DNA from: a virus
IMG/VR virus record: IMGVR_UViG_3300030202_003023
Coordinates: 1 to 64,000 of that record
DNA length: 64,000 nucleotides
Reading direction: 5' to 3' (one strand)
The notes beneath the pieces are model-generated. The model was given only the letters and a program-made list of their open reading frames with translations. It was not told the DNA's origin and searched no databases. Of this stretch, positions 8,460 through 13,271 are shown piece by piece; position 1 is the stretch's first letter, and each line of letters opens with the position of its first letter. Both the position numbers and the translations under genes were made by a program.

Positions 8460-8681
8460 ATGTTTAGTGACAATGTTGAAAAACAATTACGTGTTTTAGA
8501 AATTAATACTGACAAGCCTATAAACGAGATAAGGTTATTGTTAGAAACAAAATTAGATGAAACTAAAAATCTAATTAATACAAAAAGCCATCACAAGTAT
8601 GAAGAAGTGAAGGATGCTTATTCTGTATTTATGGAAGAATACACCCGCATTCTTGATCTTGGAGATGCATTATTACCATAA
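8460..8681 (+). CDS. hypothetical helical protein, 73 aa
   Basis: Tightly packed ORF. Confidence 0.6.
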   Translation: MFSDNVEKQLRVLEINTDKPINEIRLLLETKLDETKNLINTKSHHKYEEVKDAYSVFMEEYTRILDLGDALLP

Positions 8682-8706
8682 TTATTTAATTTTAAATTTT
8701 ATTACA

Positions 8707-8934
8707 ATGAGAAAAGTTACTGTAGTATCTACCGCAACAGGTGGAAAGAATGAAGTTTTATCAAGTGCAACTACTTGGGGAGAATTAAAAGGTCAAATCT
8801 CTGAATATATGACAGGTGAAATGAAAGTTACTGTTAGAGAAACTAGAAATGATTTATCTAATGCAGATGCAATTTTACCTGAAGGTGATTTCACTTTATT
8901 CTTATTCCCTGTAAAAGTTAAGTCAGGTAGATAA
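8707..8934 (+). CDS. ubiquitin-like (beta-grasp) protein, 75 aa, C-terminus ...FPVKVKSG-R
   Basis: Likely true start is ATG 8707. Beta-beta-alpha pattern (KVTVV...EVL...TTWGELK), then LPEGDFTLFL strand and penultimate Gly; upstream of E2/JAB/E1 genes. Confidence 0.8.
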   Translation: MRKVTVVSTATGGKNEVLSSATTWGELKGQISEYMTGEMKVTVRETRNDLSNADAILPEGDFTLFLFPVKVKSGR

Positions 8935-9089
8935 TGGCTAAGAAAAAGAACAAAGTTACTGTTACACATCCTTTTTCTTCTGTAGAAGAGCACTACAAAC
9001 ATTTACAAAAAAAGTATGATACTTATTTTAATGAGCGCTTAGAAAAACTAGAAGAAATAGGAAAAGAACTTCGTGCAGATATTAATTAA
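8934..9089 (+). CDS. small hypothetical protein, 51 aa (MAKKKNKVTVTHPF...), not in the ORF track
   Basis: TAATG coupling to the Ubl stop; ends just before a hairpin terminator. Confidence 0.65.
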   Translation: MAKKKNKVTVTHPFSSVEEHYKHLQKKYDTYFNERLEKLEEIGKELRADIN

Positions 9090-9098
9090 ATCAATAAT

Positions 9099-9130
9099 AA
9101 GAGAGGGCTACATGTCCTCTCTTTAATTTT
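9099..9130 (+). terminator. Rho-independent terminator between the Ubl genes and E2/JAB/E1
   Basis: AAGAGAGGGC-tacat-GTCCTCTCTT stem followed by TAATTTT. Confidence 0.65.
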
Positions 9131-9136
9131 AAATTT

Positions 9137-10354
9137 ATGGGAGAAGCAGAAGATGAATTTGCAGAAGCAGAAGCATTATTACAACAGCTGCAATCAGAAG
9201 AAGAACAAAGAGAAATTCAAGCACAGCAAGAAGTTGAAGTTATTGAACTTAATGATACCAATACAATGGAAATTGCACCAATACAACCAGTAGTAAAAGA
9301 AGAGCCAAAAGACACAGATGTTATAGCTTTTTTGAATAAACGCGTTACTGAAATGGCAACATTGTTAAACGCTATATATCCAGACAATTGGCACATATAC
9401 AGAAACCAAGAGTATATAAAACAAAATCCGTTTTTAAACAAGGTTATAACTGATGATGAATATCACACTAATCATACAATAATTGCAATTAGATTTCCTG
9501 AAATAACTATTACTAACACTAGAGGACATAGTAATGTAATTAAAGATTTATTTGTGTTTATGAGCATGTGTATTTATAAAGGTTCAGCACCTGAAAGTGA
9601 AGCTATTATTATGTTTGATAGTAGAATGTGTGGTACTAGATCAACTTTAAGAGAAGAAGAGTTTAATAGTAATTATATACATTCTCATCTTCCTAGACGT
9701 ACTTCATCTAGCAGTGTAGAAAAACCATATACAGCTAATGTAAATGTTAGTTATTTTTGTTTAGGTGGAGGTACTGAAACATCTGCAGCTTTAGCTGATT
9801 TAAATTACAATTTTGATATACTAAAGTTTGAATTGTTTTTATATCAGTTGTCTACGTATGTTACGCATGAAAGCTTAGGAGGCGGTCCTTACATTAGAAT
9901 GGATAGTATAAGAATGGGATCAGGGCCTAGATTTAGTTCAGAAAATAACAATAGTTGTAAAAGTACATTTTTTCACTATGTTGATAAACTTGATTCTTTT
10001 CCTCTTAAATCTTGTGTTAAAGATGGAGAAAACGCACTTGTGTATGATGAAAACAACGAAGAGCATTTAAAAGTGCTAGGTAAACTAACTGATTACCCTT
10101 ATGAAAGGCTTGAAAATAACAGATTAGTTCCTTTTACTGAAAATGTAATAACTAAAACTGAAGAACAAATTAAAGAATTAGAAGGATTGATGTTTGATTT
10201 TAGGGGTGAATCAGTATTTTTTAAAATAACACCTTATCCTAAATCTACAATAAAAAACCCTATTAAGTATCCTTCAAACAAGTTGTTGTCTTATATATCT
10301 TCTTGTATTAATAATAATATTAAAACATTTAATTCATTGCTTTATGCAGAATAA
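9137..10354 (+). CDS. prokaryotic E2/UBC-like conjugating enzyme (divergent)
   Basis: I-R-F-P-E strand, YIHSHLP (H182/H184) and FCLG (Cys208), resembling the E2 HPN/H...C signature; context with Ubl, JAB and E1. Confidence 0.6.
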   Translation: MGEAEDEFAEAEALLQQLQSEEEQREIQAQQEVEVIELNDTNTMEIAPIQPVVKEEPKDTDVIAFLNKRVTEMATLLNAIYPDNWHIYRNQEYIKQNPFLNKVITDDEYHTNHTIIAIRFPEITITNTRGHSNVIKDLFVFMSMCIYKGSAPESEAIIMFDSRMCGTRSTLREEEFNSNYIHSHLPRRTSSSSVEKPYTANVNVSYFCLGGGTETSAALADLNYNFDILKFELFLYQLSTYVTHESLGGGPYIRMDSIRMGSGPRFSSENNNSCKSTFFHYVDKLDSFPLKSCVKDGENALVYDENNEEHLKVLGKLTDYPYERLENNRLVPFTENVITKTEEQIKELEGLMFDFRGESVFFKITPYPKSTIKNPIKYPSNKLLSYISSCINNNIKTFNSLLYAE

Positions 10355-11486
10355 AAAAATTTTAAAAAAGTATGAAGAGCATACTTTACCAGAAAATTCT
10401 ACTATCATATTAAGTCAGAATTTATTAGACCAAGTAGACTACTTACATAAAGTAGTTGGAAAAGTAGAATGGAGTGGTGTACTTGTTTATAGAACTATAC
10501 AAGGCTCTATTGAAAACTATAAAAAGTTTGTAGTAGAAGCTGTAGAAATTCTTCCTATGGATGTAGGTACATCAGGATACACTGAATATGAAATAGAAGC
10601 AGCAGATGAGTATGTGTTTAAAAACTTACTTGAAAGAGTAATGCTAGATGATGATTTAAAAATAGGTCATATACATACACATCATGGTATGGATTGCTTC
10701 TTTTCAGGTACAGATATGTCAGAGTTGCATGAAAATGCTCCTAATCACAACTACTATCTGTCTTTGATTGTTAATTTTCAAGACTACACTAATTGGAAAG
10801 CTAAGATTGCACAGATTAAAACAATGAAAACAAAAGGTTCTGCAGTGTATTCTTACAAAGGTACTAATGGTACAGTTGAAGAAAAAGTATCATTAAATGG
10901 TGAAAAAGAAATTATGTCTTTGATTAATTTAAAGATAGAGCCTGAAACTACTTTAGAAGATGAGTTTATAAAAAGAGTTAAGGAACTTAAAACAGAACAA
11001 GATAAGTTTGTTAAACAAAAGCCTTTGACAGGTAACACTGATTGGACTGGTTATTACGGTAAGCCTACTGAACAAGCTACTTTGTTTGATGTACTTAATG
11101 AAAGCCTTGCTCCTGATTCTGATGACTTGTCACGTGTTTTTGTAGATGTTTCTGAAGAAAGTATAACTATGTTTTCTTTAAAGCTTCTTGCTCAATCTAC
11201 TGAACCTTTAGGTAGTTTAGAAAATACTTTAAATGTTTTAGACCAAGCTTTTTTAAGTGAGGAATACGGTGCTATGGATTACTATATGGAAACTATAGTG
11301 GATAATTTTGATGCGTTGTATTTAGAGCATTTTAAAACTACACCTTCTACAGTATCTAAAAAACTTGTTGTTGAAAAAGTAGCTGAAGTTTTAGAGAAAT
11401 TTGAAGAAAAACATAATTACACATCAGCTTTAGTTGAAACTACAATTGACACACTAAGGCTAGATCTTATTTTAGAACAAGAATAA
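10344..11486 (+). CDS. JAB/MPN (JAMM) metalloprotease with long acidic C-terminal extension
   Basis: E42 (VEWSG) ... H111-x-H113-x7-S121-xx-D124 (HTHHGMDCFFSGTD). Confidence 0.9.
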   Translation: MQNKKILKKYEEHTLPENSTIILSQNLLDQVDYLHKVVGKVEWSGVLVYRTIQGSIENYKKFVVEAVEILPMDVGTSGYTEYEIEAADEYVFKNLLERVMLDDDLKIGHIHTHHGMDCFFSGTDMSELHENAPNHNYYLSLIVNFQDYTNWKAKIAQIKTMKTKGSAVYSYKGTNGTVEEKVSLNGEKEIMSLINLKIEPETTLEDEFIKRVKELKTEQDKFVKQKPLTGNTDWTGYYGKPTEQATLFDVLNESLAPDSDDLSRVFVDVSEESITMFSLKLLAQSTEPLGSLENTLNVLDQAFLSEEYGAMDYYMETIVDNFDALYLEHFKTTPSTVSKKLVVEKVAEVLEKFEEKHNYTSALVETTIDTLRLDLILEQE

Positions 11487-11499
11487 AAAATAAAAAAAA

Positions 11500-12237
11500 A
11501 TGGAAGATACAAATCAAATGGTTTCTATTGAAGGCGTAAATACAAATGAAAATGAAATAAATCTGAATCCTAGACATGCTAGGTTTTCAGATTTAATGTG
11601 GTATGATTCTAATAATCCTCCTCACGCACTTGTTGGTGGCGTGGGAGGTATAGGTTCTTGGCTATCTTTTTTACTAGGTAGAATGGGTTGTCATCTTTAT
11701 TTGTTTGATAATGATGAAATTGATGAGACAAATATGGGAGGACAGCTGTACCAACCTTCTCAGATTGGTATGACTAAAGTAGAAGCTGCACATCTAAATA
11801 TCTATAATTTTACTGGTAACAGTGATATAGAGACTTTTAGCAAGTACACTGAAGAATCAGAGTTTTGTCCTATAACATTTTCTTGCTTTGATAATATGAA
11901 ATCAAGAAAGATTATGTTTGATATATGGGCAAATAGCCATGACGGTAATGGTATTTTCATTGACGGTAGAATGCTTGCAGAGTCTTTTCAGATTTATGCA
12001 GTACTTCCTGGAAGTGAAGATAAGTACAGAGAAACGTTATTTGATGATAGTGAAGTTGAAGAGCAACCGTGTTCTGCAAAAGCAACTTCACATACTGCAG
12101 CTATGATTTCAAGCATGATGGTAGGTATATTTACAAACTATTTATCTAATATAAAAACAGAAATGAATATTAGAGAAGTTCCGTTTTTTACCAGCTTTGA
12201 AACACATTTACTAATGCTTAATTTGGAATTACAATGA
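11500..12237 (+). CDS. ThiF/MoeB/E1-like activating enzyme
   Basis: VGGVGGIGS nucleotide-binding loop, FDNDEIDETN..Q, TK, DN...R, DGRM, candidate catalytic Cys191 (QPCSAK). Confidence 0.92.
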   Translation: MEDTNQMVSIEGVNTNENEINLNPRHARFSDLMWYDSNNPPHALVGGVGGIGSWLSFLLGRMGCHLYLFDNDEIDETNMGGQLYQPSQIGMTKVEAAHLNIYNFTGNSDIETFSKYTEESEFCPITFSCFDNMKSRKIMFDIWANSHDGNGIFIDGRMLAESFQIYAVLPGSEDKYRETLFDDSEVEEQPCSAKATSHTAAMISSMMVGIFTNYLSNIKTEMNIREVPFFTSFETHLLMLNLELQ

Positions 12238-13271
12238 ATATTGATTTTAGTGATAAAAGACCTGAGCAATTAGTAGATGATTCAGGCAAGTTCTCAAATT
12301 TATTTACTTTTAACTTAGATAGAACCTCATATTTAAGGCATTTAACTATAAAAACATCTGATTATGTACCTTTGTATTCATTGGGGTTTTTTAAACCTGC
12401 ACGTGATTACAGTGTGATGCATTCTAGTAGATTTATTGGGTATAATGATTTTACTGAAATTACAAAAAACTATTTAGTTAAAATTAAATACTATAAAAAA
12501 CAAGACGGTCAGATAAAAAACAGTATAATAAATAGATTTCTTGATAATAATATTGGTTCACATGATTGGTATGTATTAAGGGGTGAGTATTCTTCTAAAG
12601 AATTTAATTTAGAGTTAATTGACAAAGAGATAGAAATACATAAGGAGAATTTAAAAGAAGTAAAGGAAAAATTACTCTGCAATTCATCTTCTTTGTCTCT
12701 TGGTAATATATACCCAATGTATGGAAGGGCTTCTTATTCTAATGTTTTTAATAGTGTTAATGGATTAGGACGTGGTTATTATGGATCAAATCTTTTTACA
12801 AGCGCTGCACATTCTTTAAGAAATGCAGATTATTTAACTAACCTTGGATTTACAGCAAAATTTAATTCTAATAATATAGAAGTTCTTTTTTCTTATATGG
12901 TAAAAGTAGAAATGATTCCTTATATTAGATTATGTATGCTCTTAGGAGAAGAGCCTCATCCAGACAGTTTAGAATTATGGGTTAATGATACATTAGATGT
13001 ACCTAGAGGCCCACATAAAAACATACGTCCAAGATACCGTAAAGAAGTTAAACTTTTTGCAGAAAGTAGAGGCATTAAAATAGAAGAATCTTCTAATTTA
13101 AATGCAGACATTTTTAAGTCATATAAGTTACCAACTTTTAAAAATATGGTAGAAAGAAGACAGTGGTATAATTTTATAGGCAGCGCTGTTTTAAATGGGA
13201 TGAAAAAAAGCAGAAATGGAGACGGTTTTAAAATAAAAGGCGATAAAAAAACAATTAAATTAAAATTATGA
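12234..13271 (+). CDS. hypothetical protein, 345 aa, translationally coupled to E1
   Basis: ATGA overlap with the E1 stop; no motif recognised. Confidence 0.75.
   Translation: MNIDFSDKRPEQLVDDSGKFSNLFTFNLDRTSYLRHLTIKTSDYVPLYSLGFFKPARDYSVMHSSRFIGYNDFTEITKNYLVKIKYYKKQDGQIKNSIINRFLDNNIGSHDWYVLRGEYSSKEFNLELIDKEIEIHKENLKEVKEKLLCNSSSLSLGNIYPMYGRASYSNVFNSVNGLGRGYYGSNLFTSAAHSLRNADYLTNLGFTAKFNSNNIEVLFSYMVKVEMIPYIRLCMLLGEEPHPDSLELWVNDTLDVPRGPHKNIRPRYRKEVKLFAESRGIKIEESSNLNADIFKSYKLPTFKNMVERRQWYNFIGSAVLNGMKKSRNGDGFKIKGDKKTIKLKL

Follow-up and report, generated by a model that had tools for sequence, protein, structure and literature searches.

We analysed a 64,000-nucleotide stretch of DNA (the window), which is part (positions 1 to 64,000) of the 89.7-kb IMG/VR virus record IMGVR_UViG_3300030202_003023, from a marine crAss-like phage. 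On its plus strand, where all features described below lie, bases 8707-8934 encode a 75-residue ubiquitin-like (Ubl) protein, which the phage probably makes as the precursor of a protein modifier of the ubiquitin type. Judging from its relatives and by analogy with characterized systems, the precursor would be uncapped by a JAB peptidase encoded in the same gene cassette and then activated by the E1 enzyme of that cassette. We put the probability of this reading at roughly 0.72.

The Ubl protein begins with MRKV and ends with FLFPVKVKSGR, followed by a TAA stop codon. It consists of a predicted beta-grasp domain, a flexible tail that runs from V69 to G74 (V-K-V-K-S-G) and one further residue, R75, which would act as a cap. 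Gly74 (codon GGT, 8926-8928) is the predicted mature C terminus and activation site. It is preceded by K72 (8920-8922) and S73 (8923-8925) and followed by the cap codon AGA (8929-8931), a position that is variable among relatives, and by the stop codon (8932-8934). An earlier reading made from the letters alone (the sequence-only reading) had described this C terminus as a single Gly masked by one residue, and had pointed out that the 75-residue protein is hidden in a mechanical list of open reading frames (ORFs). Both points hold. Translation of 8707-8934 gives the described terminus, and the list begins this frame at 8614, for a product of 106 residues. A start at 8614 would run into an upstream ORF (8460-8681). 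Since a Met aligns with 8707 in all 12 sequences of alignment A1, and the beta-grasp domain begins no more than four residues from the N terminus of the protein in 143 of 161 family members, the 8707 start is favored over 8614.

The gene is real and conserved, and a chance ORF is ruled out. All nine candidates of similar length (41-132 residues) are homologues that are 57-93% identical to Ubl. A marine metagenome contig from another study, dated 2025, spans 8590-9200 and differs from the window at five sites, one in the Ubl gene and four in a 51-residue ORF. All five are synonymous third-position changes, and KSGR-stop is intact.

We searched 1.84 billion cluster representatives with a profile and obtained 2015 matches at E ≤ 0.001, including 1100 at E ≤ 1e-10. 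Our sample of 161 members consists of the 12 seed sequences and the best 150 of these 2015 matches, with one sequence shared; a protein of phage FpV4, described below, was excluded. Aligned with a hidden Markov model (HMM) built from the Ubl domain only, all 161 relatives have Gly in the Gly74 column. Position 73 is Ser in 146, Ala in 12, Asn in two and Leu in one, while Lys72 and Lys70 are each retained in 150. No member ends exactly at the Gly. The tail beyond it is a single residue in eight members, 2-5 residues in eight, 6-49 in four and 50-276 in 141, in a sample that is biased to long forms. The first residue past the Gly takes 17 identities, and by plain count is never Pro, Asp or His, an absence that would fit a peptidase-accessible P1′ position. 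The sequence-only reading had made its case depend on conservation of the Gly and had predicted that KSG would be conserved in homologous C termini and the tail after it variable; the alignment agrees on both counts, from the invariant Gly and the predominant Ser73 and Lys72 to tails of 1-276 residues.

The same pattern is seen in sequences found by other routes. The nine close homologues all keep K-[VI]-K-S-G and end with one additional Lys in six cases, with YGC in two and with TNG in one. Two of 43 candidates among longer proteins (P0012 and P0013) contain KVKSG followed by about 110 residues. A tblastn search of cultured phages with Ubl returned 29 records, all of them Flavobacterium psychrophilum phages; in the FpV4 protein (ALN97166, 289 residues), QVKSG at residues 79-83 is followed by 206 residues. 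In 80 viral loci that we collected, the 60 distinct tails consist of one residue (K, F, N or E), three, 21-23 or 77-209 residues. As judged from these sequences, there is nothing special about the single Arg: most members of the family are fusions of Ubl to a long tail, and the window lies at the short end of that range. We also considered activation of the actual C-terminal residue in place of Gly74. This is implausible, because the identity of that residue and its spacing from the domain vary freely and are unconserved.

The predicted fold of Ubl is ubiquitin-like. Ubl matched no family in Pfam, PADLOC or NCBIfam; among the PHROGs it matches phrog_15560 (E 9.6e-11), covering positions 9-83 of a 289-position profile. 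An AlphaFold model built with 12 relatives has a mean predicted local distance difference test score (pLDDT) of 86.6, a predicted template modeling (TM) score (pTM) of 0.72 and the order beta-beta-alpha-beta-beta-beta. The last five residues have a mean pLDDT of 51, which suggests that the C terminus is a free flexible tail. In a Foldseek search of the PDB with this model, the best rows all belonged to the ubiquitin superfamily (DWNN, UBX, NEDD8, ISG15, MoaD and ubiquitin), with E values of 1.8e-3 to 1.5e-2, none reaching E ≤ 1e-3, and TM scores of 0.5-0.7. Realignment of the Foldseek candidates with VIA gave Z ≥ 8 in 65 of 996 chains. Ubiquitin itself (1ubq) scored Z 8.1, with a root mean square deviation of 2.3 Å over 68 aligned residues (residues 2-73 of the model on ubiquitin 1-76), ISG15 scored 8.2 and preSUMO-2 scored 8.0. 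Ubiquitin folds that are not conjugated (DIX, UBX and FERM F1) match the model equally well. Because these domains score as high, the fold alone cannot mark Ubl as a modifier.

The genes that accompany Ubl supply the rest of the argument. Across the 80 viral loci, the recurrent order is primase, Ubl (with or without a tail), a 405-residue protein, JAB and E1. Of these loci, 46 extend 4.5 kb or more downstream of Ubl; JAB and E1 were each present in all 46, and a homologue of the 405-residue protein was detected in 40. In the window, the predicted JAB/JAMM metallopeptidase (380 residues, 10344-11486) would be the maturase and possibly also a deconjugase. E42, H111, H113, S121 and D124 are invariant in all 37 aligned JAB sequences, giving the exact E...HxHx7SxxD JAMM motif; E42 and H111 are the two residues that the sequence-only reading had singled out for mutation. 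The alignment includes seven loci in which the Ubl cap is one to three residues long (L003, L004, L005, L006, L031, L043 and L059). The Pfam Prok-JAB family (PF14464) matches 34 of the 37 members at E ≤ 0.1, the best at 4.4e-6.

Could the Ubl domain function without any processing? In this explanation, the phage protein simply has two domains, with the beta-grasp at the N terminus, K-x-K-S-G serves for structure or binding, the stop codon of the window fell where it did by chance, and Ubl acts non-covalently. Two-domain forms do make up 141 of the 161 members of the long-biased sample, cleavage is unobserved, and the never-conjugated UBX, DIX and FERM F1 folds fit the model as well as the conjugated ones. 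Yet a structural linker should not tolerate anything from 1 to 276 further residues and a free choice of the first of them while its Gly stays at 161 of 161, and truncation at or near the residue after the Gly recurs in divergent loci (L003, L004, L031, L043, L059 and the window). The explanation also leaves the strict linkage to E1 and to an intact JAB, in 46 of 46 loci, without a role. We regard it as unlikely.

If Ubl is a precursor, a peptidase other than JAB, from the host or the phage, might trim the cap, with JAB only stripping the tag from its targets. A carboxypeptidase could take off a single basic residue, and in Type II CBASS the role described for the JAB protein Cap3 is negative regulation through cleavage of conjugates (PMC11601596). 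Tails of up to 276 residues, however, would need an endopeptidase that recognizes Ubl; JAB is the sole peptidase in the cassette, and both characterized bacterial precedents, Bil and Bub, use their cognate JAB. A separate trimming enzyme thus seems to us distinctly improbable, and we favor JAB as the maturase.

By sequence, the E1 of the cassette (245 residues, 11500-12237) is a clear member of the ThiF/E1 family. This minimal ThiF-type protein scores 63.5 bits with Pfam PF00899 (ThiF; cut-off 28.1), and its family profile retrieves UBA5 (E 7.7e-13), MccB (9.3e-11), Uba1 (1.1e-9) and ThiF (6.1e-9) from the PDB sequences. Invariant positions are the GxGGxG motif (G47, G49 and G50), D72, K93, D131 and R136, and at least 90% of sequences also have C191. 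By eye, the protein lacks CxxC zinc-site pairs, and C191 is its only nearly invariant Cys.

The 405-residue protein (9137-10354) is a possible E2-like carrier. S183-H184-L185 and C208 are invariant in an alignment of 30 sequences, and H182 is kept in at least 90%. Its model (pLDDT 77.7) consists of a helix, a four-strand meander, the H-S-H-L motif, C208 and then further helices. In an exhaustive structural comparison, the 50 listed rows are mostly UBC, UEV and RWD domains, including Cap2 and BubB, with Z scores of only 4.4-5.7, which are below the safe level of the tool and may reflect only a common arrangement. Sequence searches gave no support: none of the 30 members matches a Pfam E2 family, the protein of the window fell into no family, and the family profile matched no PDB sequence. 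With the structure model, Foldseek returned no PDB row at E ≤ 1e-3, and a search of the ESM Atlas gave no score ≥ 0.9 and structural TM scores of at most 0.32.

The E1 and its partner bear on whether Ubl is attached to proteins at all. A ThiS/MoaD-like Ubl could be uncapped by JAB, adenylated by E1 and thiocarboxylated, serving as a sulfur carrier for a phage-specific thio-modification. The E1 is the size of ThiF, and its best curated NCBIfam matches are ThiF and MoeB models, all scoring far below their cut-offs. There are described cases of sulfur carriers whose caps are removed by JAMM peptidases (QbsE with QbsD and CxnE with CxnF; PMC5925218), and the cassette sits among replication and nucleotide-metabolism genes. 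On the other hand, searches of the six cassette ORFs against Pfam and NCBIfam turned up neither a rhodanese nor a cysteine desulfurase, nor any other domain for sulfur transfer. Ubl ends in S-G, where ThiS and MoaD end in G-G, and 40 of 46 loci encode the 405-residue partner with its invariant Cys and E2/UEV-like predicted core. A long conserved tail after the Gly is not described for QbsE/CxnE-type carriers (PMC5925218). These differences make a sulfur carrier quite unlikely, and we return to a protein modifier as the preferred reading.

As a modifier, Ubl would be synthesized in an inactive form in which Arg75 blocks the carboxylate of Gly74. The JAB of the cassette would cut the Gly74-Arg75 peptide bond, and the ThiF-type E1 would then adenylate Gly74. 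The tag would be handed on to target lysines, probably via Cys (C191 of E1, C208 of the 405-residue protein, or both), and JAB may also reverse conjugation. In most relatives, where the Gly is followed by 50-276 residues, a single cut would release two products; the lineage of the window retains one residue after the Gly and has a separate 51-residue ORF in place of the tail. The tail of Ubl, V-K-V-K-S-G, follows the same pattern as that of ubiquitin, L-R-L-R-G-G: hydrophobic, basic, hydrophobic, basic, small, Gly. Trypsin, cutting after the conserved K72, would leave Ser-Gly on tagged lysines; the sequence-only reading had predicted this remnant, and it follows directly from K72-S73-G74. We infer the cleavage, the order of the steps, the thioester transfer and the targets; for JAB cleavage and its need before E1, the argument comes from comparison and precedent.

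Several points weigh against this mechanism. The residue that precedes the Gly is Ser and not Gly, and the cap could be selectively neutral. Two concern our sampling: the search profile (176 positions) held tail columns, which inflates the share of long tails among the 150 listed matches, and the search pattern behind the 80 viral loci itself includes KSG, so that these loci provide no test of Gly conservation. Others concern the enzymes. The JAB of the window scores 16.2 bits against a Pfam gathering cut-off of 25, and its family profile retrieved only noise, and no solved relative, from the PDB sequences. The E1, at 245 residues, is the size of ThiF and is without a separate Cys or UFD domain. 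For the 405-residue protein, Z scores of 4.4-5.7 and the lack of a Pfam match make an E2-like identity inconclusive, which leaves a true conjugation cascade unestablished.

We examined the region between the Ubl and enzyme genes for traces of the tail found in most relatives. The 51-residue ORF (8934-9089) begins with an ATG that overlaps the Ubl stop codon (TAATG) and occupies the place of the relatives' fused tail. It is a real small gene, since homologues occur in L003 (E 7.5e-21) and L004 (E 2.6e-5) and all four of its differences from the metagenome contig are synonymous. A small ORF of 39-131 residues lies between the Ubl and 405-residue genes in the window and in all eight short-cap loci examined (L003, L004, L005, L006, L007, L031, L043 and L059), and the TAATG overlap is common to the window, L003, L004 and L059. 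These small ORFs look like the outcome of gene fission beside the predicted cleavage site; their homology to the tails is unsupported statistically. For the 51-residue ORF as a split-off tail, the position fits, and similarity to the fused tails was insignificant in every comparison (5.3-5.6 bits; E 0.92 in the window six-frame control; no match; 2.6 bits). Weak matches to DUF5344 were obtained for the 51-residue ORF (E 0.028) and for one fused tail (E 0.00014). In L059 (8001-8626), where Ubl ends in KSG-E-stop, TAATG opens a 131-residue ORF that weakly matches the fused-tail profile (E 0.0031). By eye only, we saw no slippery heptamer that could fuse Ubl and the 51-residue ORF by frameshifting or readthrough.

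The long tails themselves share an N-terminal module of the approximate form S-Y-x-E-L-R...H-F-N-x-G-x-N-Y-T...S-x-x-E-L (for example, L018 4975-5466 and L041 8226-8645). Pfam searches with ten long forms and 27 tails, and a profile search of PDB sequences, yielded scattered weak matches only and assigned the module to no Pfam family or solved structure. By eye, the module looks like two short helices of the SAP/HeH kind. Downstream of the 51-residue ORF, a terminator-like hairpin (9099-9123) with a 10-bp stem, five GC pairs and a T-rich tail splits the Ubl/51-residue pair from the enzyme genes; we counted one such site against 0.2 expected in shuffled sequence. A 345-residue ORF (12234-13271) overlaps the E1 stop codon. 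It matched nothing in Pfam, PHROGs, PADLOC or NCBIfam, and a homologue was detected in just 13 of the 80 viral loci.

The cassette lies between the primase and a uracil-DNA glycosylase, among genes for replication and nucleotide metabolism. Its distribution appears to be confined to phages. In viral contigs, 88 of 95 candidate stretches were relatives. By contrast, no relative emerged when 185,579 prokaryote species, each represented by one genome, were scanned twice by pattern; being pattern-based, the scans argue only weakly for absence from bacteria. A megablast search of phage records with the cassette gave no match. Homologues of E1 are present in 79 phage records, including those of 29 Bacteroides crAss-like phages, annotated as "thiamine biosynthesis protein". 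More distant E1 homologues (28% identity) occur in Xanthomonas and Erwinia phages of about 228 kb.

The same cassette is found in the cultivable phage crAss001 (our locus L083, 2828-7238). There, the primase Gp80 is followed by Gp79, a 225-residue protein in which KKIKSG precedes a tail (E 7.6e-12 with the Ubl HMM); Gp78, the homologue of the 405-residue protein (E 1e-6); Gp77, the JAB, which is labeled "metalloprotease" and carries HxHx7SxxD (E 6.2e-26); and Gp76, the ThiF-type E1 (E 2.1e-44). The genes are annotated as hypothetical, metalloprotease and thiamine biosynthesis. Literature searches brought up no paper that describes a Ubl/E1/JAB cassette encoded by crAss-like or Flavobacterium phages, and the cassette genes go unmentioned in the main texts of three crAss papers (PMC6235969, PMC7886860 and PMC10172136), whose supplements could list them. 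The cassette appears to be phage-only and undescribed.

Taken together, these data allow a broader proposal, which we advance tentatively and at somewhat less than even odds. A large ubiquitin-like system exclusive to phages may extend from phages of marine Flavobacteriia to crAss001 (Gp79-Gp76). The modifier would be made as a fusion with a conserved partner and released by JAB. In the lineage of the window, the fusion would have been split beside the cleavage site, leaving a cap that gates activation, and the tag, which would leave Ser-Gly, would be placed on host or phage proteins during replication. A capped Ubl that needs its own JAB is expected biology, established for Bil, Bub and eukaryotic ubiquitin. 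The value of the present case is its genomic setting: a Ubl family of at least 2015 sequence clusters, found only in viral contigs and phage genomes, whose cassette genes are labeled "hypothetical" or "thiamine biosynthesis" in public records. The K-x-K-S-G motif with its invariant Gly makes the reading testable, because the predicted cleavage site is defined and both a mass shift and a Ser-Gly remnant on lysines are expected. The presence of the same cassette in crAss001 provides a laboratory route to whether phages, besides their hosts, run ubiquitin-like tagging.

The combination of a cap with maturation by JAB has precedents in bacteria, and capped precursors have precedents in eukaryotes; judged by these analogies, the proposed mechanism is not new. 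Eukaryotic ubiquitin is not known to be made in mature form. Its precursors are polyubiquitin with one extra C-terminal residue and fusions of ubiquitin to ribosomal proteins, so a variable cap or fused cargo follows the terminal Gly, as in the phage family, after a tail of the same pattern. Eukaryotic precursors differ in that they are processed mostly by cysteine deubiquitinating enzymes and end in Gly-Gly. Sequence homology between Ubl and eukaryotic ubiquitin-type folds is not detectable, with 14-18% identity in the structural alignments.

Among bacterial systems, the nearest parallel to the window is the Type II Bil operon of Ensifer aridi, in which BilC cleaves BilA between Gly97 and Ala98 (PMC10557695). 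Like Ubl, BilA extends one residue past its reactive Gly, and that residue is removed by a cognate JAB/JAMM peptidase before a separate E1 acts. Bil, however, is a bacterial anti-phage operon, whereas the present cassette lies in a lytic-type phage genome and its E1 has only 245 residues. The long-tailed relatives resemble Type I Bub, in which the JAB domain of BubCD cuts BubAB directly after Gly229 (PMC11601596). There too, a fusion of Ubl to a downstream part is cut past a conserved Gly and both parts are freed. Bub differs in that it fuses Ubl to E2 and JAB to E1 and uses Tyr/Ser oxyester chemistry; the phage cassette has a tail of no known family, separate enzymes and conserved cysteines. 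We also compared the cassette with the defense-system and family models of PADLOC and NCBIfam. None matched Ubl or the 405-residue protein, and JAB and E1 gave weak matches to generic JAB and E1-E2 models; the 2023 PADLOC release may lack Bil. For the PRTRC ThiF model (TIGR03736), E1 scored 38.9 bits against a cut-off of 144.75. By any model applied, the cassette is not Bil, Bub, CBASS or PRTRC.

Sulfur carriers offer a third comparison. QbsE and CxnE are small beta-grasp proteins with two or ten extra residues past their terminal glycines, which the JAMM peptidases QbsD and CxnF remove before adenylation (PMC5925218). They end in GG and feed sulfur to metabolites; the ORFs of the phage cassette show no sulfur-transfer gene. 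Within phages, JAB cleavage at the terminal Gly of a Ub-like domain was predicted in 2006 for the lambda tail assembly protein I (PMC1779556). In lambda and T1, as in the family described here, the phage Ub-like domain has a conserved C-terminal Gly and continues into another domain; its neighbor is the JAB of protein K. That arrangement belongs to a tail-assembly module without an E1, whereas the cassette of the window has its own E1 and has primase and uracil-DNA glycosylase genes as neighbors.

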